From positions 20,614-84,613 of the IMG/VR virus record IMGVR_UViG_3300038443_000757: 64,000 nucleotides of DNA; one strand, written 5' to 3'. Under the pieces are notes generated by a model. That model worked only from the letters and a program-made list of their open reading frames with translations, made no database searches and had not been told where the DNA came from. The translations under genes and the position numbers were made by a program. Shown here piece by piece: positions 14,109-59,212 of this stretch (within the stretch, counting starts at the first letter, position 1; every line of letters begins with the position of its first letter). The DNA is from a virus. Lineage: Duplodnaviria > Heunggongvirae > Uroviricota > Caudoviricetes.

Positions 14109-14137
14109 TTGACAGATGTAAGAATAAATGGTATACT
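14109..14137 (+). promoter_or_regulatory. class-A phage promoter (TTGACA-ga-TGTAAGAATAAATG-g-TATACT)
   Basis: Member of the repeated spacer-box family. Confidence 0.6.
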
Positions 14138-14168
14138 AGTAAAACATCGGTTAAGGAGGAAGAGGTAA

Positions 14169-14372
14169 ATGAAAAAAGGTAAGACAGTTAAAGGGTTTTA
14201 TATTCATGACAATGAAGGCGATGATCTTTGGGTAGAACAAAATACTGAAGTAATTTGCTTTGCATATGTAAAAAACGAAGAAGGTTACGTGACCTACTTT
14301 CCAAACTATGGAACATCTACTGTTATTGAAATGACTTTTATTAAATTTGAAGATGATCTACCAGTCTTGTAA
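14169..14372 (+). CDS. hypothetical protein
   Basis: AAGGAGGAAGAGG RBS. Confidence 0.5.
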   Translation: MKKGKTVKGFYIHDNEGDDLWVEQNTEVICFAYVKNEEGYVTYFPNYGTSTVIEMTFIKFEDDLPVL

Positions 14373-14379
14373 GAAGTTA

Positions 14380-14408
14380 TTGACATGATTGACAAGTTAT
14401 GCTATACT
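14380..14408 (+). promoter_or_regulatory. sigma-A promoter (TTGACA-17-TATACT)
   Basis: Upstream of the long SSB leader. Confidence 0.55.
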
Positions 14409-14492
14409 ATTTAAGTCTTAGAGAACAGCCAGCTAGAAAAACATAAAAAAGATTTAACTAAAACAAACAAATGTAACATAAACAAAACAACA

Positions 14493-14515
14493 GTTGGTAC
14501 ACATGAAGAATGTTT
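14493..14515 (+). promoter_or_regulatory. conserved leader box TTGGYA-ACRCATGAAGAATGYTT (copy 1, SSB leader)
   Basis: Near-identical copy at 15716-15738. Confidence 0.45.
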
Positions 14516-14576
14516 GATCTCTTGAGACTTATTTTTATGAAAATATAAAAATGAGATAACTCAGGAGGAATTAAAA

Positions 14577-15635
14577 ATGGGTAAAGAATTAGTACAAACA
14601 AAAGGTTCGTTCGTAATGAAGGGTATTGTTGATGGTCTTGCTAGGAATGGAGCATATAATGAAGGCAATGTCAATCAGGGTAAAAATGCTGGCAAAGAGT
14701 ATAAAACGATTCGCTTCCAAGTTCAAACGAGTGCAACTAATAAATTGAGTGTAGAACTGTTTGGTATGGAAATGGATCACGTATTCGCTTACAAGCATGG
14801 TAATAAGAAAAAAGGTACTAAAGGCGATACGAAACGCATTGACTTTGAAGATCGTCATGATGATCTACCTACTGGATATCAATTGATTGGTATCAATATG
14901 GGACTTGAACAAAACGAAGCTGGTAAAAATATTCGTACTACTATGGTTGCATATGATGCAGTTGAATATATCTATGACAATCTGAATGACGGAGACAGCG
15001 TTAAAGTTCAAGGCGAACTTCAATTCGGAGAATATGAGGGTAATCCTCAAATTCGTTATGTAATTAACAGCATTTATAAAGAGGCTGATATTGACTTTGA
15101 AGATGAAAAATTCGAAGAAGTAGCTGGATTCTCGCAGGAGATTGTTATTGCTGGAACGAACATCAATAGTGCTGACAAAACTCTTGAAATTACAGCATAC
15201 ACAATCCAATATGGTAATAAATTTACTCCTGCTCAATTTGTAATTCGTCCAGAAGATGACAAAGATTTGGCTAAACTTTTGAAGGCTTTCCAGAAGCTGA
15301 AATTTGGCGACTTCATCCAAGTTGAGGGTCTTTGCATGAACAATGCAGTAGTTACAGAAGTTAAGGAAGCTCCAAAAGAGAATCCATTTGGCGGCAAACG
15401 TCCAAAGGGCGTTCAGCGTGATACCGTTACAAACTATGTAACAGAACTTCAAATTACGTATGCTGATGGTGCAACTTACAAGAAAGGGTTGTACGATGAA
15501 GGAGACTTCGTTGAAGATGAATTGATTGAAGATGAAGATGAGGGCGAAGAGGAAGTTAGCTTTGGAGGCAAGAAAAAAGGTGGACTTGGCTCTGATGATG
15601 AGGAAGACATCTCGGAAGATGAATTGCCATTTTAA
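14577..15635 (+). CDS. ssb: single-stranded DNA-binding protein (two OB-like halves, acidic tail)
   Basis: C-terminal DDEEDISEDELPF acidic tip. Gly/Lys-rich linker; OB-like repeats. Confidence 0.6.
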   Translation: MGKELVQTKGSFVMKGIVDGLARNGAYNEGNVNQGKNAGKEYKTIRFQVQTSATNKLSVELFGMEMDHVFAYKHGNKKKGTKGDTKRIDFEDRHDDLPTGYQLIGINMGLEQNEAGKNIRTTMVAYDAVEYIYDNLNDGDSVKVQGELQFGEYEGNPQIRYVINSIYKEADIDFEDEKFEEVAGFSQEIVIAGTNINSADKTLEITAYTIQYGNKFTPAQFVIRPEDDKDLAKLLKAFQKLKFGDFIQVEGLCMNNAVVTEVKEAPKENPFGGKRPKGVQRDTVTNYVTELQITYADGATYKKGLYDEGDFVEDELIEDEDEGEEEVSFGGKKKGGLGSDDEEDISEDELPF

Positions 15636-15715
15636 TTTAGCACTAAATAACAGAGTAAATTAAACACACAGGAATGTCAGGTTAACAAAACAAAATAAAC
15701 TTTTAATATATTTAC

Positions 15716-15738
15716 TTGGCAACGCATGAAGAATGCTT
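15716..15738 (+). promoter_or_regulatory. conserved leader box (copy 2)
   Basis: ttggcaacgcatgaagaatgctt matches copy 1. Confidence 0.45.
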
Positions 15739-15770: not shown

Positions 15771-15773
15771 AAT

Positions 15774-18277: not shown

Positions 18278-18306
18278 TTGACAAGTGTAAGAATAAATGG
18301 TAGAAT
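18278..18306 (+). promoter_or_regulatory. class-A phage promoter (TTGACA-ag-TGTAAGAATAAATG-g-TAGAAT)
   Basis: Spacer box conserved. Confidence 0.6.
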
Positions 18307-19168: not shown

Positions 19169-19408
19169 ATGTTTAAATTCAAACTGTTTTCTATTAAATT
19201 AGGAAAAGCAAGGAGATTGGCTGGTTCTGCAACAAATATGTTTGCAAAGGCTCATTCGAAACTTGGTAAGGCAATTGATATTCTGAACAAGGATCGTCAA
19301 ACTGCTATTGAACATGCTGAAGAACTGCAAAGACAGATTCGTGAAGCTGAATTGGTAATGGATAGTCACAAGAAAGCACAAGACAAGTTGAAAGAATTTT
19401 TCGAATAG
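19169..19408 (+). CDS. hypothetical protein (coiled-coil)
   Basis: Conserved GGGAGATGTTAAAATG initiation box. Confidence 0.45.
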   Translation: MFKFKLFSIKLGKARRLAGSATNMFAKAHSKLGKAIDILNKDRQTAIEHAEELQRQIREAELVMDSHKKAQDKLKEFFE

Positions 19409-19494
19409 CAAATGACAGAATAAATAAAAGGGTAGATTAATTTGTAATAAAATTCTTCTACCCTTTCTACTTGAAGGGAGAAGGATGATCAAAG

Positions 19495-21824: not shown

Positions 21825-21853
21825 TTGACAATCTAGTAAATTAGTGCTATAAT
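21825..21853 (+). promoter_or_regulatory. sigma-A promoter (TTGACA-17-TATAAT)
   Basis: Exact hexamers. Followed by a GATAAAATAAA block and a GGGAGATGTT initiation box. Confidence 0.6.
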
Positions 21854-21899
21854 TCTTTACAGATGGAAGATAAAATAAAAATATGGGAGATGTTAAAAC

Positions 21900-25724: not shown

Positions 25725-25753
25725 TTGACAAGTAACGCCACAAATGATATAAT
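25725..25753 (+). promoter_or_regulatory. sigma-A promoter (TTGACA-17-TATAAT)
   Basis: Exact hexamers. Confidence 0.55.
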
Positions 25754-27585: not shown

Positions 27586-27617
27586 TGCTTGACTTACCAT
27601 CAAGCATTTGATATACT
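27584..27617 (+). promoter_or_regulatory. class-B promoter AATGCTTGACTTA (TTGACT-17-TATACT) with 9-bp palindrome AATGCTTGA/TCAAGCATT spanning the -35
   Basis: -35 at 27589-94, -10 at 27612-17; inverted repeat at 27584-92 and 27600-08. Confidence 0.5.
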
Positions 27618-27662
27618 TATAAATGTCAGATAAAACAAATACAAATTATTGGAGGAAGTAAA

Positions 27663-27923: not shown

Positions 27924-27945
27924 TAACAACTAGGATGTGACATGA

Positions 27946-28155
27946 ATGAAAGATAAAATTAAAGTAGACATTGTTACATTTGCTAAACACAGAGATTATC
28001 TTGGCTTTCATCTTTTCAGTTATGAGGAAGTTCAATTAAAAAACTACGAAGAATCAATGAATTGGGCTTCTTATTATGAGTGGGTTAAACCACCTGAAAA
28101 GCATCAACGAACTTATCAGATTTGGAAACAGTATCAAGAATATCTAAATAAATAA
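27946..28155 (+). CDS. hypothetical protein
   Basis: 69-aa ORF. Confidence 0.45.
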   Translation: MKDKIKVDIVTFAKHRDYLGFHLFSYEEVQLKNYEESMNWASYYEWVKPPEKHQRTYQIWKQYQEYLNK

Positions 28156-31075: not shown

Positions 31076-31104
31076 TTGACAAGTAAAAGAATAAATGATA
31101 GAAT
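31076..31104 (+). promoter_or_regulatory. class-A phage promoter (TTGACA-ag-TAAAAGAATAAATG-a-TAGAAT)
   Basis: Spacer box conserved. Confidence 0.55.
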
Positions 31105-36303: not shown

Positions 36304-36332
36304 TTGACAGATGCAAGAATAAATGATATAAT
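36304..36332 (+). promoter_or_regulatory. class-A phage promoter (TTGACA-ga-TGCAAGAATAAATG-a-TATAAT)
   Basis: Spacer box conserved. Confidence 0.6.
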
Positions 36333-36414: not shown

Positions 36415-37065
36415 ATGGCTAAACGCTACTACAAATTGCAAGAAACGATCTGGATCAAAGAACTTAAGAAAACTGGTGTTGTTCAAAAACTTGACATTCC
36501 TAACCTTCAAGCAGAAGTTACTTATGTTGCAAGCCGCGAAGGTGGCAATACGGTAATTAATCGTCAAACATTCAAATTTGAACAGATTGACAAGCTGAAG
36601 CGTAAAGATGAGGTAGCTAAGACTGATGAGAAACCGCTTACAATTCTCGTTAAATACTTTGATGGGGACTCAGAAGAAATTACGAAAATTCCTAATGGAG
36701 ACTGGATTGATCTTCGTTCTGCTGTGTCAATGGAATATAAAGCAGGAGAATCTATTAAATTACCTCTTGGAGTTGCGATGTCTCTTCCATTCACTTACGA
36801 AGCCCATGTTGCTCCGCGTGGTAGCACATTTAAGAATTACGGAGTTATTCAAACAAACTCTGTTGGTATTGTAGATGAGAGTTATAAAGGGCCAGATGAT
36901 CAATGGTTCTTGCCATTGTACGCATTGCGCGATGGAAAGATTGAGAAAGGTGATCGCGTTTGTCAATTCCGTATTATGAAGAAAATGGAAAAAGTTAACC
37001 TTGTTAGAGTAGAAGAACTGAAGAGTCCTAATAGAAATGGTTATGGCTCTACTGGAACAAAATAA
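36415..37065 (+). CDS. dut: dUTP pyrophosphatase (dUTPase) with N-terminal extension
   Basis: Motif II APRGST, motif [15 protein letters not shown], and C-terminal RNGYGSTG motif V. ORF-track start 36304 trimmed to the ATG after GGAGATG. Confidence 0.7.
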
Positions 37066-37791
37066 ATGAAGGAAATAGAAACAAAGAAAGGATATGTACT
37101 CGTAGATGACCATGTTTATGAGTACATATCTCAATGGAGATGGCAAATAGGTAAAAACGGCTATGCTTGCAGAGACTTTTATGAAAGAGGAAAAAGAAAA
37201 ACAGTAAACTTGCATAGACTTATTTGGGAAAAATTTGTTGGTACAATTTCTGACGGCCTTTATGTAGATCATATTAATAGGGATAGGCTAGATAATACGT
37301 TAGATAATTTAAGACTTGTGACTCCTCATCAAAACAGTCTGAATTCTAGCAAGCAATCAAACAACTTGTCTTCTAAATATAAAGGTGTAACAAAAAATAA
37401 GCAAACTGGTAATTGGGTAGCCTATATAACAAAGCACAAGAAAAGGAATTGTATTGGCTCCTTTACAAATGAAGAAGCCGCCGCCAATGCCTACAACTAT
37501 CATGCAGAAAAAGAATTTGGAGATTTTTCTAGTCTTAATGAAGTTGAAATTGTGATGAGTTACAGTGAGTGGAATAAATTTATGTTACCAAAAAGAGGTT
37601 TAAATAATTACTCTGGCATATCTTTTAGAAAAGATAATGGCAAATGGAGGGTTTTATTGTACGATCTTCAAAAAAATAAAATCAATGTTGGTCATTATAA
37701 CTCTGAAAGAGAAGCATTGATTGCAAGAAATAATTATGTAACAAATCATCTAGAGCTTGCTGATAAATATCCAATTGAAGAGTATGAGTAA
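37066..37791 (+). CDS. HNH homing endonuclease with AP2-type DNA-binding repeats
   Basis: YVDHINRDRLDNTLDNLRLVTPHQN (HNH_3); YKGV...GNWVA and SGISFRKDNGKWRV AP2-like repeats. Confidence 0.8.
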   Translation: MKEIETKKGYVLVDDHVYEYISQWRWQIGKNGYACRDFYERGKRKTVNLHRLIWEKFVGTISDGLYVDHINRDRLDNTLDNLRLVTPHQNSLNSSKQSNNLSSKYKGVTKNKQTGNWVAYITKHKKRNCIGSFTNEEAAANAYNYHAEKEFGDFSSLNEVEIVMSYSEWNKFMLPKRGLNNYSGISFRKDNGKWRVLLYDLQKNKINVGHYNSEREALIARNNYVTNHLELADKYPIEEYE

Positions 37792-37806
37792 ATGTAAGAT
37801 AAAATA

Positions 37807-37842
37807 AGGCTAAGAGGTCATGAACTTCTTAGCCAAACTTTT
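37807..37842 (+). other. stem-loop GGCTAAGA/TCTTAGCC followed by T-run (terminator-like)
   Basis: 8-bp inverted repeat then AAACTTTTTC. Confidence 0.35.
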
Positions 37843-42325: not shown

Positions 42326-42828
42326 CAATTAATATCATTGTGGCAATGGATAAGAACGGTTTGATTGGAGCGAATAATAAACTACCTTTCCATCTTCCTG
42401 CTGATCTTTCTTATTTCAAGCGTATGACCAGTGACAATGTTGTTATCATGGGCAGAAAGACTTATGAATCTATTGGAAAGCCTTTACCAAATAGAACAAA
42501 CGTTGTATTGACGAGACAGCATATTTATCATGAAGGATATCACTTTATTCATTCCATTGACGATGCTCTTGAAATGGATGCTATATCTTCATATGAGAGA
42601 GATATCTTCATAATTGGCGGAGAGGATATTTACAGACAATTTCTACCCTATGCAGAGAACCTTTTCATTACTGAAATTGATCATGAATTTGAGGGAGATT
42701 CATATTTTCCAAAATTTGACAAAAATGATTGGGATTTGATCGGTCAAAAAAACGGTGTAAAAAATGATGCCAATCCATATAATTATTGTTTCAAAATATA
42801 TACAAGAAGCTTGACAGATGAAAGATAA
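42322..42828 (+). CDS. folA: dihydrofolate reductase
   Basis: INIIVAMDKNGLIGANNKLPFHLPADLSYFKRMT...VIMGRKTYESIG. Confidence 0.88.
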   Translation: MTINIIVAMDKNGLIGANNKLPFHLPADLSYFKRMTSDNVVIMGRKTYESIGKPLPNRTNVVLTRQHIYHEGYHFIHSIDDALEMDAISSYERDIFIIGGEDIYRQFLPYAENLFITEIDHEFEGDSYFPKFDKNDWDLIGQKNGVKNDANPYNYCFKIYTRSLTDER

Positions 42829-42842
42829 AGTAGTATACTATA

Positions 42843-43042: not shown

Positions 43043-43461
43043 TCTATCTTGACGATCTTCGTCCATGTCCTGAAGGATTTACAATTGCCAGAACAGTAGA
43101 AGAGGCAATTGATATTTATAAAAAGCATGCATTATCAGAAGAGTCTAAGATTATCTCTCTTGATCATGATCTTGGAGGACTTGACGGAACTTATAAACGT
43201 ACTGGCTATGATTTTTGCAAATGGCTTGTAGAAGAATACTATAATCATTCTGAAGATGGATGGCTTTTTCCTGATATTATTTACTTGCATACAAGCAATC
43301 CTGTCGGCAGAAATAATATGTTTCAATTGTTAGAAAGATATGCTCCAAGTTACACTTTTATTAGCAGAGCACCTATGCCGCACTATGAATCTGATGGTTC
43401 AGTATACAAAGAAGATATTGGTATTGCAAAACTAGAAGAAGACGATGAGTTCTTTAAATAA
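43036..43461 (+). CDS. hypothetical protein with conserved LDHDLG...HTSNPVG motifs (receiver/Rossmann-like fold?)
   Basis: MKLYLDDLRPCP...ISLDHDLG...GYDFCKWL...LHTSNPVGRNNM. Confidence 0.45.
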   Translation: MKLYLDDLRPCPEGFTIARTVEEAIDIYKKHALSEESKIISLDHDLGGLDGTYKRTGYDFCKWLVEEYYNHSEDGWLFPDIIYLHTSNPVGRNNMFQLLERYAPSYTFISRAPMPHYESDGSVYKEDIGIAKLEEDDEFFK

Positions 43462-43506
43462 ATGTAAGATAAAATAAATTAACTAAACAAAAGGAGAATG
43501 CCAAAA

Positions 43507-45382: not shown

Positions 45383-45411
45383 TTGACTTATTGGTAAATG
45401 TAAGATAAAAT
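45383..45411 (+). promoter_or_regulatory. class-B promoter (AATGCTTGACTTA...TGTAAGA-TAAAAT)
   Basis: TTGACT-17-TAAAAT; contains the 19-mer TAAATGTAAGATAAAATAA. Confidence 0.5.
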
Positions 45412-45441
45412 AAAAACATAACAAACAAGGGAGATGTTGAA

Positions 45442-45920: not shown

Positions 45921-46418
45921 ATGGAGAACAAATTTAAAGTTGGAGATATTGTAACTGGCAACGAATTGAGTAATGGGGAATATGGAATAATATCAACAGA
46001 TATGCTAAAAGGGGAAGTTGTTGACATTCTTGGTCGTGAAATGACTATTCGGGTTTTAGAGCATAATTGCCCTCAGTATTACGGCGATGAATATGTTGTT
46101 AAACAAGAATGCTTTGATCTTGTAGAAGATAAAAAAGAAGTTAATTCATCAAAAGATAAAGAAGATATTAAAGCAGAAACACCGAAGAGTGATGCCAAAA
46201 TTACTCTTGAAGATATGATTATTGTTGCGGCAGTTGGCGAATTCCTTGAACGGAATTATGAAGATTCTGTTGCAGAAGTGGCAGGCGTTAGAGAACTTAT
46301 TCTATTCACAATGGAGTCTATTAAAGCTACCAAAAGAATTCAAGAAGAAGATAAAAACTTTAACGAAGTTGAAGAAATTAGAAAAATCCTTCGTAAGTAT
46401 GTAAAAAAAGCTCTATAA
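45921..46418 (+). CDS. hypothetical protein, FKVGD-module paralog B
   Basis: MENKFKVGDIVTG N-terminus; tandem to paralog A. Confidence 0.5.
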   Translation: MENKFKVGDIVTGNELSNGEYGIISTDMLKGEVVDILGREMTIRVLEHNCPQYYGDEYVVKQECFDLVEDKKEVNSSKDKEDIKAETPKSDAKITLEDMIIVAAVGEFLERNYEDSVAEVAGVRELILFTMESIKATKRIQEEDKNFNEVEEIRKILRKYVKKAL

Positions 46419-46483
46419 GTGAAAGATAAAATAAATGGGGTGCGGATTGATTTCTGCACTCCAAAAACGAAAGGATGAACTGA

Positions 46484-47863
46484 ATGTTAAAAGATTTATT
46501 TTCTAATCCTCTTATTTTGACTGATACGTACAATCTATCTCATCAATTTCTCAAGTTCAATAATGACTGGGAAGTTAGCCATGTTTATAATAGAAAGCGT
46601 CCAATGGTACTTTATGGGGTTTCTGAAGCTGTAAATCGTGTTCTTTCTATTAAAATTGAAATGTGGATGGTTGACGAAGCTGAACAATATGCAAAAGAAA
46701 AAAGTATGCCATTCCCAAGAGAGTTGTGGGAACGAGTTGTAAATGAATTCAATGGCTATGCACCAATCATGATTGAATCTCTTCCTGAAGGATCATATAT
46801 TCCTGCTGGTACACCATTCATGCAGATTCGTAATACCGTTGAAGGATTTGGCGAATTAAAGGATTGGTGGGAAGGTATTATTCTTCAAAATGCTTTTGCC
46901 TCTGGTTGCGCTACACGTGCATATGAAATGGCAAAGTATCTTAAAGACAACGATCTTCCAATGATTCGTTTTCATAGTTTTGGATGGCGTGGGCATCAAT
47001 GTCCAGAAAGTGGATATTGGGCTGGTACTGCTTGGAATCTATTCCTTGTAGGAACTGATGATTTCCATACTAAAAAGCATACACCAAAAGCCAAGATTGG
47101 TAGCATTCCTGCACTTGCACATAAGGTAACTCAGCAATTCGATAAAGAATATGATTGTTATATTCGTGCAATTGATTTTGCTGTCAATACGCCACTTCGA
47201 ACTGTGGCATTAGTTATTGATACTTATGATGCTAATCGTTTTATTAATCAGTATCTTATTGGCCTTGCTCGCTATGCACTTGACAAAGGTGTCCATATTG
47301 TTTGCCGTCCTGACAGTGGAGATGTTCTTGATCAAGCTATTGAGATTTACAAAGTATGTATTGAAAACAATCTTGCAAACGTCTCTGTGATCATTGGAGA
47401 AGGCATTACGTTTGAGGTGGTCAAAGCATATGATGCAAAGCTTAAAGATGCTGGAGTGCCATTGGCGTTCGTCTCTTATGGTATTGGTGCTGGATTCTAC
47501 AAGGACATTGACCGTGACTACCTTGGATTTGCAATGAAGGTTGCATTCTCTAATGGTAAGCCACGTATGAAATTTGGAATGACAGCGTTGAAGCGCAGTA
47601 TTCCCGGCAAGGTTTCTATCATTAAAAAAGACGGAGATTTGCTCGTCATTCCTGAAGGAAGTCTTATGTCCTATACGTACAATGATCTTTATGAGATTAT
47701 TTATGTTCATGATGACACTACTGAAGAGCCAATTATCAAAACAACTGAATGGAATGAAATTTATGATCGTGTTCAAGAAGTTGATGATCATCAAAAAGTA
47801 ATCTACATTTCTCAGGAAATTGAAAATATGATTGCTGAATTCAAAGAACAATATAAAGGGTGA
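46484..47863 (+). CDS. nadV: nicotinamide phosphoribosyltransferase (NAMPT/NadV)
   Basis: N-terminal NPLILTDTYNLSH (cf. NAMPT ..TDSYKVTH); about 460 aa type II PRTase. Confidence 0.8.
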   Translation: MLKDLFSNPLILTDTYNLSHQFLKFNNDWEVSHVYNRKRPMVLYGVSEAVNRVLSIKIEMWMVDEAEQYAKEKSMPFPRELWERVVNEFNGYAPIMIESLPEGSYIPAGTPFMQIRNTVEGFGELKDWWEGIILQNAFASGCATRAYEMAKYLKDNDLPMIRFHSFGWRGHQCPESGYWAGTAWNLFLVGTDDFHTKKHTPKAKIGSIPALAHKVTQQFDKEYDCYIRAIDFAVNTPLRTVALVIDTYDANRFINQYLIGLARYALDKGVHIVCRPDSGDVLDQAIEIYKVCIENNLANVSVIIGEGITFEVVKAYDAKLKDAGVPLAFVSYGIGAGFYKDIDRDYLGFAMKVAFSNGKPRMKFGMTALKRSIPGKVSIIKKDGDLLVIPEGSLMSYTYNDLYEIIYVHDDTTEEPIIKTTEWNEIYDRVQEVDDHQKVIYISQEIENMIAEFKEQYKG

Positions 47864-47868
47864 TATGT

Positions 47869-48642
47869 ATGGAAATGAATATGAACAATAAAGATGCAAA
47901 TGGAGATATTATTAGCGCAACACCGCCTAGGCCTTGGACAATTGGCGATCCTCCACCATATAATCATGAAAAAAATAACACAATCTGGACTGGGCCATCA
48001 ACTTTCCCATATCTTACACCTATGCCTAAAAAACCATTTAAATTTGGTTTTTTGCTTGGACGATTCCAGCATATTCATATTGGTCATGAACAAATGATTG
48101 ATAGAGCGCTTGATGTTTGCGAGAAGGTTTTGGTCATTGTTGGCTCTGCACAAGATGATGCACGAATTACCAATCCAATTCGCAATCCGTTTGAAACTCA
48201 TTTTCGCATTAGGCTTATCAATGAGATTTATAAAGACAAGCCAAATCTCTTTGTAACGTCTATGCCTGATTTGACTCACGAAAATGATCATAGCTGGGCA
48301 TGGGGCAACTTTGTTCTTCAAAATGTTGCACTGCGAGCTAATCAGTATGATATCAAAGAAAGTCCTGATATTATGGTTTTTGGTAATGACGAAGAAAGAA
48401 TGTCGTGGTTTAATCCAGACGATATCAAGACAGTTAATCAACTGATTGTTGCGCGTGGAAACATTGACATTAGTGCTACTCAAATGCGCAATTATCTTGT
48501 TGAAAATAATTTTTGGAAATGGCGGCAGTATGTAAACTTGAAACTTTCACCATTGTTCCCTGTAATTCGTGAAGAACTTTTCAAAGTAGAACACTACAGA
48601 AAGTTGGCTGAAGAAAATGGAACAATCAATGCCCACAAGTAA
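47869..48642 (+). CDS. nicotinamide-nucleotide adenylyltransferase (NadM/NatV-type)
   Basis: GFLLGRFQHIHIGHEQMI (HxGH nucleotidyltransferase motif); ISATQMR C-terminal motif. Confidence 0.75.
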   Translation: MEMNMNNKDANGDIISATPPRPWTIGDPPPYNHEKNNTIWTGPSTFPYLTPMPKKPFKFGFLLGRFQHIHIGHEQMIDRALDVCEKVLVIVGSAQDDARITNPIRNPFETHFRIRLINEIYKDKPNLFVTSMPDLTHENDHSWAWGNFVLQNVALRANQYDIKESPDIMVFGNDEERMSWFNPDDIKTVNQLIVARGNIDISATQMRNYLVENNFWKWRQYVNLKLSPLFPVIREELFKVEHYRKLAEENGTINAHK

Positions 48643-49177: not shown

Positions 49178-49342
49178 ATGGGAATGATTAAATTTGAATA
49201 TAAAGAAGTACCTTTTCATTCACTGTCGCCTCATCATGGGCAACTTAGTATAAAATTATTAAATGAATTAGGTGCCCAAGGTTGGGAACTTGTAACTATT
49301 ATCAGTGGAGAATGTATCTTTAAACGACAAATAAAAGAATAA
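49178..49342 (+). CDS. DUF4177-like small protein (54 aa)
   Basis: KFEYKEV...LNELGAQGWELVTI resembles the DUF4177 family. Not in the ORF track. Confidence 0.4.
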   Translation: MGMIKFEYKEVPFHSLSPHHGQLSIKLLNELGAQGWELVTIISGECIFKRQIKE

Positions 49343-49349
49343 ACAACTA

Positions 49350-49400
49350 TTGACATTTGGCACTCTATATGGTAAAATGGATTTTACTTGCTAGAGTGCC
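49350..49400 (+). promoter_or_regulatory. sigma-A promoter (TTGACA-17-TAAAAT) embedded in 9-bp inverted repeat GGCACTCTA/TAGAGTGCC (operator-like)
   Basis: IR arms at 49359-67 and 49392-400 bracket the -10 and the start site. Confidence 0.5.
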
Positions 49401-49807: not shown

Positions 49808-50064
49808 TGAGTGATTTCTACAATTGGAAATTAGTTAAAAAGACAAGAAAGGATCATAATTGCTTTGGTTGTTGTGAAAAAATCCCTTCTGGTTCATCTG
49901 CACATTATTATGCTGGAGTATTCGAAGGATATTTTTCAACTTCTTATTATTGTATTCCATGTAAAAAATACGTTGATGAGAATCCTGAAGATTGGTCAGA
50001 AGGATTTTATTATGGGGACATTGGTGAGTCAAGAAGAAGGTTGGAAAAAATGAATGGAAGATAA
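49807..50064 (+). CDS. Cys-rich zinc-ribbon protein
   Basis: CFGCC...CIPCKKY. Confidence 0.45.
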   Translation: MSDFYNWKLVKKTRKDHNCFGCCEKIPSGSSAHYYAGVFEGYFSTSYYCIPCKKYVDENPEDWSEGFYYGDIGESRRRLEKMNGR

Positions 50065-50509
50065 AATAATTATATATACAGACGGAAGTGTAGATCACAA
50101 AGATAGAGTTGGCGGAATTGGTATTGTAATGTCTTACAAAGGAAATGTAAAAGAAGTCTATGAAGGTTATGAAGATACCACAATCAGCCGAATGGAATTG
50201 CAAGCTTGCATTAGTGCAATTAAGCAACTTAAACGAAATGACATTCCTGTTGAAATATATTCGGACAGTGCCTATGTAGTAAATTGTTTTAAAGATAAGT
50301 GGTATGTGAATTGGCGTTCAAACGGTTGGAAGAATGCAAAGAAGAAGCCAGTTGAAAATCAGGATTTATGGGTTGAATTGCTTGATCTTTATGAGAAGCA
50401 TGGGAATGTTAGTCTTTGTAAGGTGAAAGGACACATTGGTGTTCCTGAGAACGAAAGAGCAGATGTTCTTGCTAATATGGGAAGGAGATTGATTTTGGAT
50501 GCAAAATAA
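50054..50509 (+). CDS. rnhA: ribonuclease HI
   Basis: DEDD residues in order (YTDGS, MELQA, YSDSAYV, ERADVLA), with the basic protrusion KWYVNWRSNGWKNAKKKPVEN. Confidence 0.85.
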   Translation: MEDKIIIYTDGSVDHKDRVGGIGIVMSYKGNVKEVYEGYEDTTISRMELQACISAIKQLKRNDIPVEIYSDSAYVVNCFKDKWYVNWRSNGWKNAKKKPVENQDLWVELLDLYEKHGNVSLCKVKGHIGVPENERADVLANMGRRLILDAK

Positions 50510-51232: not shown

Positions 51233-53539
51233 ATGGAATTAAATGTAATTGATAATTGTGCTTGTTGTGCAACTGAAGATGGATTTGTAAATCTCCATTT
51301 ACACACAGCATATTCGCTTCTCGATGCACTTAGTAAGCCAGAAGATATTATAGCAAAAGTAAAAGGTTTAAATCAAAGAGGATTTGCTTGTACGGAACAC
51401 GGCAACGTTCATAGTTCTGTAAAAGCTTATAAATTGGCTAAAGAAAATTCTTTGAAGTTTATTTATGGATTAGAGGCATATATCACTGAAGATAGATTTA
51501 TCAAAGATAAAACAAATAAATACTATCATCTAACTATCCTAGCAAAAAATGAACAGGGTAGACAGAACATCAATAAGCTTGTAACAATCTCCAATCTTGA
51601 AGGATTTTATTTTAAACCTCGTATTGACTTTAAATTGCTTGAAGAATTTGGTGATGGCTTAATCATCATGTCAGGATGTATGGCCTCTGAATTGCAACAA
51701 GCATTAGCTGGAGGAAAGATTGGTAATGGTGATGTTGAAATAACATCTGGCAACATTGAGAGAGCCAAAGAAATTGCAAGACGTTATCGTAATGCATTTG
51801 GTGAGGATTATTATCTTGAAGTTCAATCACACAGAGATAAGCGTCAACAGCAATTAAATCGTGCGATAGTTGACATTGCAAAAGACTTAGGCATTCAATG
51901 GGTTGCTACTGCTGACAGTCATTTTGTCAATGAAGAAGATTTAGATTTGCACAGGGTTTTCATTGGTATCAACCGTAACAAAGACGATTTTGAATCTGAC
52001 GAAACATATCAAGACACACAGATTCAAAGTGAAAAAGAGGCATGGAATCTTCTTATGTCTTTGACTGAAGATGAGCGTAATGTTGCAATTAGGAATACTC
52101 TGAACATAATGGATAAATGCAATGCTCCATTGCCACTTTCAGCACCTTTAATTCCTCATGTTAAAGTTCCAGAAGGTTTTGAAACTGAGGAAGATTACTT
52201 GCAACATTTGTGTAACGAGGGATGGAAGTTTAGGAAGATTGGATATAAATCAAAGAAGCTTCAACAAGAATATAGGGACAGACTTATTTATGAATTTAAT
52301 GCGATCAAGGATATGGGATTCACAGGATACTATCTCCTTGTTTATGGATACGCAACATCTGTTCGCAGAAGAGGTATTGCACGTGGTTCTGGTGGAGGTT
52401 CGCTTGTAGCTTATCTGATTAATATTGTAGATATTGATCCAATTGAACATGGATTGTATTTTGAGCGCTTTATTGATGTTGCCCAACTTGATTTAATCAA
52501 GAGTGGAGAGCTTAAGCCTGAAGAGATTAAAATACCAGATTTTGATTTGGATTTCGGCACAAAAGAACGCGATCTTGTCTATAACAATATCGTTACTGAA
52601 CATGGGTATGAGCATGTTGTAGCTCTTGGTCAATTTGGTTACATCTGGACCAAGAGCGCTATCAAGGATGTTGGTAGAGTGCTTGGAGTGCCATTTGAAG
52701 TAACGAATGAGATAACGAAGCTACTAGGAGAGGATACGATTGCAGAAGGGCTTACAAGTGGCATTCTGAAGCCCTATCAGCGTCAATATCCAAGACTGTT
52801 TGAGTATGCAATGAAACTAGAAGGATTACCCCGCTCATATGGAATGCATCCATGCGGTAAGGTAGTAACGATTGATCCTGCTGTTTATTATACAGGATTA
52901 TCACAGAAGGAAGGTCAGCTTGTCTTACAAGTTGACATGAAAGATGCAGAAGCACTTGGTTTAGTTAAGGTAGATTTACTTGGACTTCGTACAGTTGATG
53001 TAATCTATGACACACTAGATATGATTGGCAAGGACACTGAATATATCCGTAACATCACATACGATTGTGCTGAGATGTTAGAAATCTTTAAAAATGGATT
53101 TACTGACGGAGTTTTCCAGTTCGAGAGCGAAGGTATGAAGCAAACATTGATAAATATGATTCCTACCCATTTAGATGATCTAGGAGTTGTAAATGCTCTG
53201 TATAGGCCAGGAAGTTTGAAATATATCAAAAACTACATTGATAGGAAGCACGGAAGAGAACAATTTGAATATCTTCACCCTGATCTTGAACGTATTCTTA
53301 AAATCTCTTATGGCATTATTGTATATCAAGAACAACTGATTGAGATTGGACGAATGGCTGGCATGCGTAATCCAGACCTTTTACGTCAAGCTACAGGTAA
53401 AAAAGATATGAAGAAACTTGCGAAAGCTGAGCCTGAACTTCGTGATGGCTTGTACAAAAGAGGTTGGACAAAGGAGCAGGTAGATCAATTGTGGGAAGAT
53501 ATGCTGAACTTCGCCAAATATTCATTTAATAAAGCCCAT
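51233..53539 (+). CDS. dnaE: DNA polymerase III alpha (DnaE-type) exon 1: PHP domain, palm and fingers up to FNKAH
   Basis: PHP motif VNLHLHTAYSLLDAL; ends in the conserved YSFNKAH fingers motif. The 3' boundary is inferred. Confidence 0.7.
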
Positions 53540-53714
53540 AAAATGTGTGTGGCTTAGTGTGGCGACATACTAAGAAAATCCTTCTAATTGCGGGGAACTC
53601 CTAAAGACTTCAATACCAACTTAATATGGTGACATGATTAAGGGCGTTGCTAACTACAACGATATGGTAAAAAGTTGAAGTATAAATAATATGGACAATC
53701 CGCATCGAGACTTC

Positions 53715-53743
53715 TTGAAATAATTTACATCCCATGATACAAT
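53715..53743 (+). promoter_or_regulatory. promoter for intron ORF (TTGAAA-17-TACAAT)
   Basis: Inside the intron, upstream of the AAAGGAGG RBS of the HEG. Confidence 0.4.
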
Positions 53744-53766
53744 AGAAAGAAAGGAGGTTATAAATT

Positions 53767-54771
53767 ATGGCAAAAAAATATACTCAAAAACAAAAAGAAC
53801 TTATTTTAAAATTATATCAAGAGGCACAAGACTTGGATGAGGCTATATTAAGATTAAAAGAACAAGGAATAGTCATGACTAGGCAGGCAATGGCTGATAT
53901 GGCTCACGATAATGGTATAAAAAGAAAAAGAATTTATACAAAACAAAACAAATTATCAGTCATAGAGATAAGGCAATTAGTTTCAGATTATGAGTCTGGT
54001 ATTTTTACTATGGAAGAATTGATAAAAAAGTATGGTTTTAAAACAAGAAAATCAATAACAGATAAAGTTAAACTTTATAATGGCAAAATGAGAACGCAAG
54101 ATGAAGCTAATAAAATGAGAAAAACTTATGAAGAAACAATGTTTAATAAGCTTGATGCGGAATGGAAAGCTTATATGGTTGGACTGCTTCTTACCGATGG
54201 TTATATTACCAATGATCAAATAGGACTTGATTTAACCGATGAAGATGCAATAAGTTATCTTGCAGAAATGACTGGAAAGGGTAATTACACGACAATTGTT
54301 GATAGTTGTAAAAGTAAAAAGGCAAAATATAGACTAACTCTTAATTCTAAAACAATTATAGATGATTTGACTAGATTTGGGGTTGTGCCAAGAAAATCTC
54401 TAACATTAAAGGGGCCGTTGCTCAATGAAGATGAAAGAAATTATATTCCACATATCTTTAAAGGAATTATTGATGGAGACGGCTGGATTAGAAGTGATGG
54501 CAAAGAATTTTTTATCGTTTCTGCTTCAAGAGATTTTCTTGAGTGGTGCATAAAAGAGTTAATTCTATTAGGAATGAGTAATTTAAAAATTACTCAAAAA
54601 ACATTTGATAATGAAAAGTGGAATGACTGTTTTCTTGTTAGGACTGCTCTTAAATCAAATATAACTATTTTAAAAGAGAAAATATACGTCTATGACTTAG
54701 GGATGGGTCGTAAACGTGAAAAATTATTTCAAGAAGGGCGTTCAGAGACTACCACAAGGAAATCTCAATAA
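53767..54771 (+). CDS. LAGLIDADG homing endonuclease (double-motif) with N-terminal helix-turn-helix region
   Basis: Two LAGLIDADG motifs: MVGLLLTDGYI and FKGIIDGDGWI. Confidence 0.8.
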   Translation: MAKKYTQKQKELILKLYQEAQDLDEAILRLKEQGIVMTRQAMADMAHDNGIKRKRIYTKQNKLSVIEIRQLVSDYESGIFTMEELIKKYGFKTRKSITDKVKLYNGKMRTQDEANKMRKTYEETMFNKLDAEWKAYMVGLLLTDGYITNDQIGLDLTDEDAISYLAEMTGKGNYTTIVDSCKSKKAKYRLTLNSKTIIDDLTRFGVVPRKSLTLKGPLLNEDERNYIPHIFKGIIDGDGWIRSDGKEFFIVSASRDFLEWCIKELILLGMSNLKITQKTFDNEKWNDCFLVRTALKSNITILKEKIYVYDLGMGRKREKLFQEGRSETTTRKSQ

Positions 54772-54844
54772 ACTTTGAGATTATGGTATAGTCCAGACCA
54801 CAACGTATATATAATGCGACTAAGGAAATCTTAGTGTGGTAAAG

Positions 54845-55735
54845 TCACAAGCTTATGCAATTATTGCAATGATCTGTGCATATCTGAAAGCATTCCACCC
54901 AACTGAGTTTATGTGTGCATGGCTTAACTCCTTAGTAGATCATCACGATAAAATTGAAACTGCTTTCAAAGAGGCTAAACGAATGGGAGTTAAAATAAAG
55001 CCATTAAATTTCAAAGATGCAAATGCTTTATGTAAAGTGGTTGATGGAGAGCTTGTCTACGGAATCTCTTTGATTAAACACTGTAACGCTCAGATTGCAG
55101 AAGATATTGCAAAGCTTCAGCCAGCAAATCGTTTTGTTGATATGATCATTCAAATCAAAGAACTTACTTCAATCAACTCTAAACAACTTGATATCCTTAT
55201 CAAACTTGATTTCTTCTCTGAGTATGGAAGCAAAGAACTATTGCTTACAATCCTTAAAGAAGTCAACGATGGCAAGAGCAGATATAACAAGACGCACAAG
55301 GAGGCAACTAAGCTCAAACGAATTGCGGCACTTCATGAATATGAGGACGAGCTTAGACAGGGACAAGTTGACTTGTCCATTAAACCATATGAACAAATTG
55401 CATTTGAACTTGATCATTATGGTTTCATCAAAACAACTTTTAAAGAAATTCCTAAAACAATACTAGCTGTAATGGATATCGACATGAAGCCTAAAACAGC
55501 TTATATTGCAGTTAAGTCATTCTGCTATAAAACTGGAGACACGTTTGAGTTCAGAGTCAAGAAGGATAAGTTTTATGGCAAAAAAGATATTGAATCTTTT
55601 GAAGTTGGAGATTCCATTAAGATCAAAAATCTTTCTGAAAAAGCTAGAGTACGTAAAGATGAAACTACTGGCAAATGGATTGAAACTGGAGTAAATGATT
55701 ATTATCTTGAGAAAGCAATAAAAATAAAACTATAA
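54845..55735 (+). CDS. dnaE: DNA polymerase III alpha (DnaE-type) exon 2: rest of fingers, HhH and C-terminal OB region
   Basis: SQAYAIIAMICAYLKAFHPTEFMCAWLNS aligns to DnaE ([25 protein letters not shown]). Confidence 0.65.
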   Translation, partial: SQAYAIIAMICAYLKAFHPTEFMCAWLNSLVDHHDKIETAFKEAKRMGVKIKPLNFKDANALCKVVDGELVYGISLIKHCNAQIAEDIAKLQPANRFVDMIIQIKELTSINSKQLDILIKLDFFSEYGSKELLLTILKEVNDGKSRYNKTHKEATKLKRIAALHEYEDELRQGQVDLSIKPYEQIAFELDHYGFIKTTFKEIPKTILAVMDIDMKPKTAYIAVKSFCYKTGDTFEFRVKKDKFYGKKDIESFEVGDSIKIKNLSEKARVRKDETTGKWIETGVNDYYLEKAIKIKL

Positions 55736-56169: not shown

Positions 56170-56198
56170 CTTGACATTTTAACAAATATAAGATAAAA
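56170..56198 (+). promoter_or_regulatory. promoter (TTGACA-17-TAAAAT) with TATAAGA-TAAAAT box
   Basis: Followed by a GGGGAGATGTAAATTATG initiation box. Confidence 0.5.
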
Positions 56199-56233
56199 TA
56201 GATTTACATTGAAAAACAGGGGAGATGTAAATT

Positions 56234-56789: not shown

Positions 56790-56792
56790 TTG

Positions 56793-57002: not shown

Positions 57003-57348
57003 AGTTGTAATTGCTGGCTCAAGAGGATTTAATGATTATAATCTTTTAAAAAAGAAACTTGATTTAATCCTAAATGATATCTCAATTCCCATTGAAATTG
57101 TTTCAGGTGGAGCAAGGGGAGCAGATAAATTAGGAGAAAGATATGCTAAAGAAAAAAGGTATTTGATCAAAAGATTTATTCCTGATTGGAATATTGGTAA
57201 ACATGCTGGACTTATTCGAAATGAAGAAATGGCTAAATATGCTGATGCTTGTATATGCTTTTATGATGGTGAAAGTAATGGGACTGGACACATGATAAAA
57301 ATGGCTAAAAAATACAATTTAAAACTAAGGGTGATAAACTATGGATGA
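56980..57348 (+). CDS. SLOG/DprA-LOG-like Rossmann-fold protein (DUF2493-like)
   Basis: VVIAGSRGF...IVSGGARGADKLGERYA motif pattern of the Smf/DprA/LOG superfamily. Confidence 0.45.
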   Translation: MMKIETFKVVIAGSRGFNDYNLLKKKLDLILNDISIPIEIVSGGARGADKLGERYAKEKRYLIKRFIPDWNIGKHAGLIRNEEMAKYADACICFYDGESNGTGHMIKMAKKYNLKLRVINYG

Positions 57349-57586
57349 TAAAATTACTATTAATGGTGTAACATATGTCCGTGAAGATTCTATTGAAAAA
57401 GAATTTTCAAGTGATGATGTTATTAAATATTTGAGAGAATTGCCAAGTTGGGAGTACATCAACATTGTTGAAGACTCTATTGCTCAAATTGTAAAAAAAG
57501 GATGGTATGACAACTCTGATATTGCCAATGGAGATATTGATCTTCATGAAAGACAAATTCTTGCAATTTACCTTGCCGTAAACTAA
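57341..57586 (+). CDS. hypothetical protein
   Basis: ATGA overlap with the upstream gene. Confidence 0.4.
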   Translation: MDDKITINGVTYVREDSIEKEFSSDDVIKYLRELPSWEYINIVEDSIAQIVKKGWYDNSDIANGDIDLHERQILAIYLAVN

Positions 57587-57615
57587 TAAAAACACTTACT
57601 AAGGAGACTGTACAA

Positions 57616-57882
57616 ATGAAATATAAAATCGTCAGCGTTATCAATCTTGAAACACTTGAACCTTGTGAAGTAGCAATTCATCGTAATCGAATTGGCAGAG
57701 AAGTAGAATTGATGTTTGCACCAGAAGAGGGAAGCGTAATCATTTTTGTTAATCCTGATTATAGCACTACGCAAACTACCAAAGTTCAAGAGATTATTAT
57801 TAACGACGAAGATTATTTAATTTTCGAAACTAAAAATTCCCGCTATACCTTGGAGGTATTGAAAGATGGAGAATCTAAATAA
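57616..57882 (+). CDS. hypothetical protein
   Basis: AAGGAGA RBS. Confidence 0.45.
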   Translation: MKYKIVSVINLETLEPCEVAIHRNRIGREVELMFAPEEGSVIIFVNPDYSTTQTTKVQEIIINDEDYLIFETKNSRYTLEVLKDGESK

Positions 57883-58033
57883 AAATATTGTCAAAGAAGT
57901 ATTAAGAGAAATGTTCAGCACTGGCGAAATCACAATTGACATTAGTGAAGTATATGCTTGGTATGATTCTGATCCTGATCATATTTTGTCAGTTCGAATT
58001 GATGGAGAAGTAGTTCATAACGTATATTTTTAA
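57866..58033 (+). CDS. small hypothetical protein (55 aa)
   Basis: GGAGGT RBS 8 nt upstream; not in the ORF track. Confidence 0.35.
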   Translation: MENLNKNIVKEVLREMFSTGEITIDISEVYAWYDSDPDHILSVRIDGEVVHNVYF

Positions 58034-58067
58034 TATCACATACAAAAATAGAGAGAAGGAATTTACT

Positions 58068-58634
58068 ATGGCAGTTACAACATCTGGAAATAGACTCCTT
58101 ATACTTGGAGAATACGTAAATAACAGCACTGTTAACAGTCTGGTGAAAAGTATTATCGAATATAATATGGAAGATGATGCTTATGAGAAAGATGCTAAAA
58201 ACTTTGAACGTAAACCTATTGTAATTATCATTAACTGCTACGGTGGTGTTGTATATGATGGGTGGGCACTTATTGCGGCTATTGAAATGTCTGGAACACC
58301 AATTGTCGGATTGGCTATTGGAAGTGTTATGAGTATGGCCCTCCCAATTTTCTTGTCTTGCCATACGCGACTTGCACACAAGCGAGCTACTTTTATGTAT
58401 CATGAAGTTATTACTGGTGCTCAAGGATCAATCACAGAAGTTAAAGAGGGACTTGAGAATGCAGAAGTTCTTCAAGACAGAAATGATGCTTACATTCTTG
58501 AGAAGACTACAGTTTTAAGAGATAAACTTCTTTCTGTCCGCGAACGTAAAATCAATTGGTTTATTCCTGCCGAGGAAGCAGTTAAATACGGAATCATTGA
58601 CGAAGTTATTACTGAGCCTGTAGCTTGGATATAA
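58068..58634 (+). CDS. ClpP-family serine protease
   Basis: NCYGGVVYDG, GLAIGSVMSMA (Ser box), FMYHEV (His box), GIIDEVI (Asp box) in ClpP order. Confidence 0.65.
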   Translation: MAVTTSGNRLLILGEYVNNSTVNSLVKSIIEYNMEDDAYEKDAKNFERKPIVIIINCYGGVVYDGWALIAAIEMSGTPIVGLAIGSVMSMALPIFLSCHTRLAHKRATFMYHEVITGAQGSITEVKEGLENAEVLQDRNDAYILEKTTVLRDKLLSVRERKINWFIPAEEAVKYGIIDEVITEPVAWI

Positions 58635-58647
58635 AGGGGGAATTAAC

Positions 58648-59187
58648 TTGAACAATCTGTTCCTTATCGTTGGGCCTTCTGGCAGTGGAAAAACCACTGT
58701 CATGAGGTCTGTAATGAAAAATGAGATCGTATCCTGTACAACTAGAGAACAACGAGAAGGCGAAGTTAATGGAGTAGATTACGTGTTTGTTACTGAGGAT
58801 GAATTCAAATCTGCTTTTGACGATGGTCTTCTTATAGAACATACTAAATATTCTGGAAACTACTACGGCCTATCATACCATGAAATTGAATCAAAGCTTA
58901 AAAAAGATCATGCATTTGCTATTGTTGACATTAATGGACTTCAACAGCTTAAAGCTATTTATCCTTACTGTACTTCTATCTTCATCAAGACAACCAAAGA
59001 ACATTGCACAAGAGCTATGATTGAAAGAGGCGATTCTTTAATCAAAGTTCACCAGCGTTTAGAGACTTTCGAAGACGAACAATATGATGCATTAGAAAAT
59101 TGCGATTATGTTGTTAAGAATGAATATGGCGACATAAGTAAGGCAATCTGTGTCATCACATCAATCATTGAAGTGCATACTGTTTGA
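58648..59187 (+). CDS. gmk: guanylate kinase
   Basis: P-loop GPSGSGKTT; CTTREQREGEVNGVDYVFV; EHTKYSGNYYG. Confidence 0.85.
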   Translation: MNNLFLIVGPSGSGKTTVMRSVMKNEIVSCTTREQREGEVNGVDYVFVTEDEFKSAFDDGLLIEHTKYSGNYYGLSYHEIESKLKKDHAFAIVDINGLQQLKAIYPYCTSIFIKTTKEHCTRAMIERGDSLIKVHQRLETFEDEQYDALENCDYVVKNEYGDISKAICVITSIIEVHTV

Positions 59188-59212
59188 CAAATATAAGAAT
59201 AAATGATATAAT
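59184..59212 (+). promoter_or_regulatory. class-A phage promoter (TTGACA-aa-TATAAGAATAAATG-a-TATAAT)
   Basis: Spacer box conserved; overlaps the gmk stop. Confidence 0.55.

Follow-up and report, generated by a model that had tools for sequence, protein, structure and literature searches.

A box of ~20-24 bp recurs in the phage DNA examined here, a 64,000-nucleotide stretch of the IMG/VR virus record IMGVR_UViG_3300038443_000757 (Caudoviricetes; positions 20,614 to 84,613 of the record), which we call the window. The box is asymmetric and A/T-rich, with the consensus ~(T/A)(G/A)ACARATGnAAGA(AT/TA)AAAT(G/A)A, and is a free-standing element, independent of the sigma-A promoter hexamers among which many of its copies lie. 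It is probably the lineage-specific operator of the phage's own MrpR/SroF-type repressor, which would shut early sigma-A promoters. The protein predicted with reasonable confidence to act on the box is the product of the open reading frame (ORF) at 4168-5142; the counterparts of this MrpR/SroF homologue in SPbeta and phi3T bind similar repeated asymmetric boxes. The system is most likely a new example of a known switch, and not a new kind of promoter. Mildly new are the extent to which the box is fused into the core promoter and the system's apparent reach into Tsamsa/PBC2-like phages. Identical sequence is present on metagenomic contigs of up to 169,219 bp, the source being an uncultured phage of ~169 kb.

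When the copies are aligned on AAGA, they show one core, ~AcAAATGnAAGA(AT/TA)AAATaAa, between unrelated flanks. Strong copies number 17 and weaker ones about 10; they are spread over 59 kb, and the opposite strand has none. The 14-mer TGTAAGAATAAATG occurs exactly or nearly so at 14117, 18286, 31084, 36312 and 59192, and with up to two mismatches it has 11 matches, all on the + strand, where 2.4 are expected. The 19-mer TAAATGTAAGATAAAATAA is found exactly at 37789, 43459 and 45395, one base from the coordinates in a preliminary description of this DNA; allowing three mismatches gives 10 matches (0.3 expected), again all on the + strand. A degenerate core, ATGNAAGAWWAAAT, written as a pattern without fitting to the data, has 11 matches, likewise confined to the + strand, against an expectation of 0.17. 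A scan of the window with a position weight matrix, a tool that the preliminary description had proposed, returned 28 + strand matches of at least 16 bits, none on the minus strand and none in Markov simulations, a figure that is circular because the matrix was trained on its own matches. Intergenic sequence holds 18 of these 28 matches, and 15 of the 17 strong ones, in a region that is 90.5% coding (P = 2e-12); the element is thus not equally frequent in coding sequence, the outcome that the preliminary description had set against its own proposal. A further word reported there, AATGCTTGACTTA, is a small real sub-family of -35 contexts: it has 4 matches with at most one mismatch, 0.33 being expected (at two mismatches the count is not significant), and two of these matches belong to a tandem pair of promoters separated by 71 bp.

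The box occurs in at least five registers relative to promoters and also without any promoter. In register A (six copies: 14110, 18279, 31077, 36305, 42812 and 59185) it starts at the G of TTGACA and fills the 17-bp spacer, its own TGACA belonging to the -35 and its own ATG forming the extended -10. In register B (45392 and 56180) it is displaced by 9 bp, and its own TAAAAT is the -10. Register D copies (344, 5843, 21857 and 27617) start 28-38 bp past the -35 of another promoter, at about -1 to +10, and the single register U copy (49325) ends 1 nt before a -35. Stand-alone copies (2018, 19406, 37786, 43456, 46413 and 50048) lie at gene junctions without a sigma-A promoter; some adjoin a Shine-Dalgarno sequence and three precede hairpins. 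The core AcAAATGnAAGAwwAAATaAa is common to registers A, B and D and to the stand-alone copies, and the flanks are not conserved. The sites are as follows.

14109-14137 (box 14110-14133), + strand: register A promoter, TTGACA-17-TATACT, block in spacer.
18278-18306, + strand: register A promoter, TTGACA-17-TAGAAT, block in spacer.
31076-31104, + strand: register A promoter, TTGACA-17-TAGAAT, kept in the related contig L001 with a diverged upstream flank.
36304-36332, + strand: register A promoter, TTGACA-17-TATAAT, block in spacer.
42811-42839, + strand: register A promoter, TTGACA-17-TATACT, with the variant GATGAAAGATAAAGTAG; a sixth site, absent from the preliminary description.
59184-59212, + strand: register A promoter, TTGACA-17-TATAAT, with an orthologous promoter in L007.
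45383-45415 (box 45392-45415), + strand: register B promoter, TTGACT-17-TAAAAT, the TAAAAT of the box being the -10.
56171-56203 (box 56180-56203), + strand: register B promoter, TTGACA-17-TAAAAT, -10 given by the box.
306-367 (box 344-367), + strand: register D, promoter TTGACT-17-TAATAT (306-334), heading the gene block that ends with the repressor gene.
5805-5866 (box 5843-5866), + strand: register D, promoter TTGACA-17-TAGAGT, box downstream.
21825-21880 (box 21857-21880), + strand: register D, consensus promoter TTGACA-17-TATAAT, box starting 4 nt past the -10.
27589-27640 (box 27617-27640), + strand: register D, promoter TTGACT-17-TATACT, box adjoining the -10.
49325-49378 (box 49325-49348), + strand: upstream register (U), promoter TTGACA-17-TAAAAT, box ending 1 nt before the -35.
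2018-2041, + strand: stand-alone box covering the stop codon of an AAA-ATPase gene and adjoining the GGAGG of the next gene.
19406-19429, + strand: stand-alone box, hairpin 19430-19463 directly after.
37786-37809, + strand: stand-alone box with an exact 19-mer, over the stop codon of an HNH-AP2 endonuclease gene, terminator-like hairpin 37808-37834 next.
43456-43479, + strand: stand-alone box with an exact 19-mer, without a -35, next gene 28 nt on.
46413-46436, + strand: stand-alone box at a gene end, hairpin 46437-46462 next, upstream of the NAMPT gene.
50048-50071, + strand: box of the stand-alone class over the start codon of gene 50054-50509.
9003-9026, + strand: weaker copy (16.8 bits) spanning a stop codon and ribosome-binding site; it may be due to chance.
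11987-12010, + strand: weaker copy (18.1 bits), intergenic.
27940-27963, + strand: weaker copy (17.3 bits) over the start of gene 27946.

The preliminary description had treated the conserved block as a property of the promoter spacer, with a spacer set and a shifted set as separate classes. Neither view holds: the shared core makes the two sets a single element and, because the same box of ~20 bp is found in at least five registers and away from promoters, it is not a spacer property. The five promoters first listed (14109, 18278, 31076, 36304 and 59184) do have the block between the hexamers of TTGACA-17-TAnAnT, although one -10 is TATACT and not TA(T/G)AAT as reported. In the shifted set, where the block was said to supply the -10, this is true of 45383 and 56171 but not of 37789 and 43459, which have no -35. 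Among the reported relatives of the 19-mer, those at 46416 and 56183 are real, and the one at 51140/51145 is weak and falls below a 12-bit matrix threshold. What the preliminary description concluded from the conservation is borne out, in that it is unlike that of a free sigma-A spacer and points to a sequence-specific factor marking an early promoter set.

Eight box-bearing sites fit the sigma-A pattern (TTGACA, 17-bp spacer, TATAAT-like) with 10-12 of 12 hexamer matches. An upstream TG (extended -10) is present in all six in-spacer promoters, and the conservation at the 3' end (ATG-R ahead of TAnAAT) is in part merely this extended -10 TGn. Among 17 strong intergenic sigma-A-like promoters predicted from the sequence, 11 have the box inside -25 to +38 and six have unrelated spacers.

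The hairpins at 19430-19463, 37808-37834 and 46437-46462, directly after stand-alone boxes, are G+C-rich, with a T-rich tail in two cases and an A-rich tail in the third. Promoter occlusion does not account for these copies, which may have some connection with termination or roadblocking. We rejected the idea that the A-rich box is a mere terminator A-tract, as conservation extends over the full 19-mer and a hairpin is missing from most copies. A ribosome-binding leader, (A)GGGAGATGT(T)..ATG, is conserved ahead of six genes (19156, 21885, 31139, 42307, 45429 and 56220); four of the six copies follow box-bearing promoters, and the leader is conserved in L001 too.

The window encodes a member of the MrpR/SroF family, preceded by a gene that also has an SPbeta counterpart.

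3365-4168, + strand: yopQ/sroE-like gene immediately preceding the repressor gene; its product matches SPbeta YopQ in phmmer (E=2.2e-12).
4168-5142, + strand: gene for an MrpR/SroF (YopR)-family integrase-fold repressor of 324 aa, the predicted cognate binder, identified by Pfam, PDB and tblastn searches.

The product of ORF 4168-5142 matches the Pfam families MrpR_N_CB (88.9 bits) and MrpR_C_cat (61.4 bits; cut-off 27 each). A PDB search returned 9rd5 (E=6e-33) and the YopR/MrpR structures 8bjv and 8a0a (E ~1e-26), and tblastn of all window ORFs against SPbeta aligned it with yopR over its full length at 29% identity (E=3e-25). The 9rd5/9rgl protein, named 'Core-binding (CB) domain-containing protein', we take to be the phi3T SroF chain, because its residues fit the SroF contact residues named in bioRxiv 10.1101/2025.11.27.690993. 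In the active-site alignment (Table 3, PMC10516654) Arg-I is replaced by V/A and His-II by K in the window protein, with E, K, R258 and Y304 retained; by alignment it thus combines a recombinase fold with active-site degeneracy like that of MrpR. The repressor alignment was checked on SPBc2 yopR (L033, 31280-32257), in which MrpR position 136 is E; the residue is G or S in every homologue, and the E is the published heat-sensitive c2 mutation G136E. The order of the two genes is the yopQ-yopR order of SPbeta. Searches of the 64-kb window with phmmer found no homologues of YopM-P, the other sro genes, nor of AimR, YonR or YosL.

In SPbeta, a repeated element of early promoters termed SPBRE (Lazarevic 1999, as cited in PMC10516654) is the operator of MrpR (YopR/SroF), as shown by chromatin affinity purification sequencing (ChAP-seq), electrophoretic mobility shift assays and reporter assays (Kohm et al., Nucleic Acids Research 2023, PMC10516654). 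MrpR is the SPbeta master repressor, monomeric and of tyrosine-recombinase fold, and represses PaimR and PyosX (PMC10516654). From the regions upstream of ten ChAP-seq targets in the SPbeta genome, we derived SPBRE as ACAAATACAAAWAATATGTATA. At yonP, yorZ, yosX and yorE it fills the spacer, as TAGACA-AATACAAATAATATGTA-TATAAT; at yopV, yopM and yonX it is found after the promoter and ahead of the ribosome-binding site, and aimR has it upstream of the -35. These placements (spacer-filling, promoter to ribosome-binding site, upstream of the -35) agree with those in the window. In both phages, moreover, the repressor belongs to the same Pfam families and its gene follows a yopQ-like one, and many co-oriented, asymmetric, A/T-rich boxes lie between genes in the early clusters. 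SPBRE and the window box both begin with ACAAAT, and both phages have a box at a yorE-type promoter: the genes after promoter 14109, a small one at 14169 and those at 14577 (Pfam YorF) and 15726 (AAA_24, as yorG), parallel yorE-yorF-yorG, and box 14110 is the positional equivalent of PyorE, which bears an SPBRE in the same register. In contrast, the repressors are only 29% identical, the boxes differ (ACAAATACAAAWAATATGTATA in SPbeta, ACAAATGTAAGAWWAAATRA in the window), and the window belongs to a ~169-kb genome of Tsamsa/PBC2-like gene order, with no aimR or LexA box in the window.

The SroF protein of phi3T encircles a 26-bp box as a monomer, contacting 24 of the 26 bp in a 2.5-Å complex, with two A-tracts recognised through the major groove and in part through DNA shape (bioRxiv 10.1101/2025.11.27.690993). 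The phi3T element, Phi3TRE, is CATTAAGAATAAAAATAAAATTACTG in gene orientation (reverse complement) and shares the 9-nt core AAGAATAAA with the window box; there are ~30 co-oriented copies, many adjoining a -35 or a ribosome-binding site, as in the window, and its upstream register is like that of box 49325. 9rd5/9rgl is the best solved relative of the window repressor, and the A-tract character is common to both boxes. If the window protein is likewise a monomer, an asymmetric, orientation-specific box is to be expected. Most DNA-reading residues differ, with K233/F234/H237 replaced by S/S/Y and Q300/K304 by Y/D in the window, while R238 and Y26 are kept. The listed Phi3TRE copies (77 kb scanned) are never spacer-filling and for the most part lie outside the spacer, whereas eight window copies are fused into the core promoter.

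Pattern scans of IMG/VR led to L001, a contig ~75% identical to the window, and to two phages of ~167-170 kb that are ~65% identical. These relatives carry TGACAAATGTAAGATAAAATRAWA in the same registers as the window, and their registers include TTGACA-box without a -10, and the box directly before a ribosome-binding site; one copy lies on the opposite strand and faces the opposite way. At the orthologous promoters 31076 and L001:11796 the -35-box-(-10) block is nearly intact and the upstream flank is scrambled. The consensus promoter 25725-25753 has a decayed box (AGTAACGCCACAAATGA) where its L001 orthologue (5758-5786) has an intact one (AGTAATAGAATAAATGG), which suggests box turnover between close relatives. 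What is seen in the relatives disfavours both recent duplication and a pure spacer role.

Boxes are private to their lineages. Among IMG/VR loci, the Tsamsa-like and the phi3T-like ones show repeated words of their own, with almost no cross-matches between lineages, as expected for co-evolving repressor-operator pairs. (K-mer motif discovery recovered these two kinds of box, failed for SPbeta-like loci and for the window's first 21 kb, and was excluded from the statistics.) The IMG/VR phage IMGVR_3300047472_000155, which has the same box as the window, encodes a SroF that is 51% identical to the window protein and has the same DNA-reading residues (S-S-Y-R in alpha13, Y-D in alpha18). The SroF of locus L103 is 52% identical, has K-A-Y-R/F-N at these positions and is accompanied by no such box in 21 kb. 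Among cultured genomes, the closest homologues of the window repressor are in Paenibacillus larvae CP020558.1 (L105; 52% identical), a 128-kb 'plasmid' with phage-like genes, and in a Paenibacillus agricola contig (L106; 44%); they hint that the window's lineage may have a Paenibacillus-type host and live as a prophage or phage-plasmid. An IMG/VR search with the single window repressor protein found no relatives, and an exact DNA probe from the sroF genes of L108 and L109 found nothing there; a profile search and a back-translated peptide pattern did recover sroF relatives. The full promoter-box pattern, run against 596 Gb of bacterial genomes, gave 100 loci with a single match each and no cluster, chance matches that point to no prophage or host.

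PBC2 (Haetaevirus, Andregratiavirinae) and Tsamsa-like phages are the closest cultured relatives by gene order (repressor homologue, single-stranded DNA-binding protein, helicase, primase, RecJ, ribonucleotide reductase), and their SroF homologues are 38-40% identical to the window protein. The PBC2 homologue (38%) is PBC2_076, annotated as a 'DNA breaking-rejoining enzyme'. In PBC2 (L035, 25001-75000), ~15 of 19 TTGACA-17-TATAAT promoters have the common spacer AGCGCAAAAATTAATGA, which can also be written A(A/G)nGCAAAAAnTAATGA, and IMG/VR relatives are alike. The sequence of this spacer is unlike the window box, but it is probably the same kind of operator, apparently unannotated. We know of no description of conserved-spacer promoters in PBC2/Tsamsa-like phages.

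How the window system might work is suggested by these precedents. By analogy with phi3T SroF, the ORF 4168-5142 protein would clamp one box as a monomer, and we infer that it represses by this binding. In registers A and B the bound protein would cover the -35 and -10 and exclude sigma-A RNA polymerase; at register D, stand-alone and ribosome-binding-site-adjoining boxes it would block promoter escape or read-through from upstream. Early, replication and nucleotide-metabolism promoters would thus be kept off, in lysogeny or in a temporal switch, until the repressor is removed, and because about two thirds (11/17) of the strong intergenic promoters of the region are boxed, the early lytic programme as a whole could be held off. 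The box at 344-367, downstream of promoter 306, would make the repressor block autoregulated, as at SPbeta PyopM. In phi3T and SPbeta, the repressor is released via the Sar antirepressor under LexA control. Directly after the terminator of the repressor gene (5132-5151) lies a perfect TTGACA-17-TATAAT promoter without a box (5344-5372); it drives a 121-aa ORF (5418-5783), which may escape repression.

Several observations weigh against the operator reading. Cross-scans of the window box against SPBRE and Phi3TRE, by matrix and by consensus, were essentially empty, and the operator link rests on the architecture, the shared 9-nt core and the presence of the repressor gene; missing matrix matches are expected if specificity has diverged. 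The strong copies at 37786, 43456, 46413 and 19406 have no sigma-A promoter nearby, and three of them are followed by hairpins, so that plain promoter occlusion is insufficient for these sites. The repressor of the P. larvae replicon (P0007) has the S-S-Y-R/Y-D residues, yet its 21-kb locus has no match of at least 16 bits, and the covariation between repressor residues and box is suggestive but imperfect. Finally, the window, which covers 64 of the ~169 kb, yielded neither a Sar-like antirepressor nor a LexA box, an AimR or an integrase; the LexA-box search gave one match with one mismatch inside a gene, which is at chance level.

Perhaps the integrase-fold system does more than lock lysogeny, although we think this unlikely: one monomeric protein could set both initiation and read-through or termination across the entire early region, or act positively at boxes without a -35. 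The basis for this idea is the operator's fusion into the core promoter, together with the additional promoter-less boxes at gene junctions and before hairpins.

An improbable alternative is that the box is a phage-specific promoter or activator element, in which TAAAAT/ATAAAT serves as the -10 and the upstream ACAAATGnAAGA docks a phage sigma factor, a sigma-appropriating factor or a phage RNA polymerase; the box would then mark a middle or late class, its overlap with sigma-A promoters giving dual temporal use. The strict co-orientation with genes and the intergenic positions upstream of them are what such an element would show. So is the -10-like hexamer, which acts as the -10 in two predicted promoters, and the stand-alone copies lacking a -35, to which this reading may yet apply, resemble factor-dependent promoters. 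However, six copies have the -10-like part in the middle of the spacer of consensus sigma-A promoters. A ribosome-binding site follows within 1-6 nt of the box at 2018 and 9003 and at L002:422, L004:1492, L005:948 and L007:7164, where a start site 6-8 nt past the hexamer would be unfit because it would land in or past the ribosome-binding site. No homologue of SPbeta YonO or of the 'sigma factor' gene of Brevibacillus phage Sundance was found by phmmer in the window, most of whose proteins had no Pfam scan and which is 64 of ~169 kb, and the homologous elements of SPbeta and phi3T are repressor sites by experiment. The middle promoters of T4, with a MotA box at -30 and a sigma-70 -10, and other factor-dependent phage promoters offer an analogy only: there too promoters of host type have their -35/spacer region replaced or overlaid by a phage-specific element, which sets a temporal class. 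In the window, by contrast, the -35 is complete and matches the consensus, the position of the element relative to the hexamers varies, and the family precedent is repression, not activation. No MotA- or AsiA-like genes were identified.

We consider it quite improbable that no separate factor is involved and that the box is a duplicated or recombined sigma-A cassette, conserved for needs intrinsic to the promoter (extended -10 TG, A-tract curvature, spacer shape). It is true that the 3' end, ATG-R-TAnAAT, is an extended -10, that A/T-rich spacers are common, that the full promoter pattern turns up singly, by chance, in 100 unrelated bacterial contigs, and that PBC2 promoters also have a common spacer. 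But the unrelated flanks argue against recent duplication, and the core is kept without a promoter and at shifts of 9, 28-38 and -25 bp, where no spacer role is possible. Moreover, six strong promoters of the same region have unrelated spacers, and the box survives at ~65% genome identity. Finally, a 5'-untranslated or intercistronic RNA motif read by a translational repressor or nuclease would fit the restriction of the box to the coding strand and the many copies that adjoin Shine-Dalgarno sequences or hairpins, but is very improbable, given that register A and B copies lie upstream of their own promoter's predicted start site, that the box has no match in Rfam, that core and flanks have no consistent pairing partner, and that the family precedent is DNA binding.

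The window has a G+C content of 34%, and its genes are on the + strand up to ~59.9 kb and reversed thereafter. They include genes for ribonucleotide reductase, a DnaE-type polymerase, RecJ, a helicase, a primase, thymidylate synthase and NAMPT, together with many small ORFs; a search for tRNA genes in the window found none. Megablast of 8 kb against a phage collection gave no matches, so nothing in that collection is near at the DNA level. By protein, the closest cultured relatives are Sundance (58% in PolIII-alpha) and the Bacillus siphoviruses FADO, PBC2 and Tsamsa (160-170 kb; 42-44% in RecJ/YorK), with SPbeta more remote. The gene order is Tsamsa/PBC2-like and not that of Spbetavirus.

Several loci in the window are of interest in their own right. 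The DnaE-type polymerase gene is in pieces (51233-55735): 51233-53557 encodes the PHP, NTPase and finger domains and 54836-55735 the HHH_6 domain, and between them lies a LAGLIDADG_3 ORF (53767-54771) preceded by a promoter-like TTGAAA-17-TACAAT at 53715. SPbeta YorL, the corresponding polymerase, is a single ORF of 1305 aa. Rfam detected no group I intron at the divided gene, which may be interrupted by a predicted free-standing homing endonuclease. Another homing-endonuclease-like ORF, with HNH_3 and AP2 domains (37066-37791), follows the dUTPase gene (36415-37065), which is 60% identical to SPbeta YosS, and precedes the next operon. A putative RNA-repair module (7710-11106) comprises an RNA ligase with a PHA02142 OB domain, an RlaP nucleotidyltransferase and an AAA_33 kinase-HD phosphatase fusion. 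NAD salvage is represented by a NAMPT-like gene (46484-47863) and a cytidylyltransferase-like ORF of the NMNAT type (47860-48642); the related phage locus L103 has an NMN transporter gene. A bidirectional terminator with a 16-bp stem (59858-59894) marks the point where gene orientation switches, and beyond it on the minus strand are a beta-helix (tail-spike-like) gene (59903-62140) and an Amidase_2 endolysin-like gene (62856-63740).

Where there was an unexplained conserved spacer, the analysis offers a testable regulon with ~20 mapped boxes and a single predicted repressor gene; the phage itself has been met in metagenomes alone. The regulon introduces no new principle of promoter recognition, but suggests that the monomeric integrase-fold repressor system of SPbeta and phi3T reaches much larger and distant phages. 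The lineage-private boxes would be useful natural variants in specificity, both for work on the reading of long A/T-rich DNA by this fold and for the prediction of hetero-immunity groups. It is even conceivable, although we think it unlikely, that the MrpR/SroF switch is a general regulator in large Bacillales siphoviruses, far outside the arbitrium phages, should the conserved spacers of PBC2/Tsamsa-like phages be its operators too.

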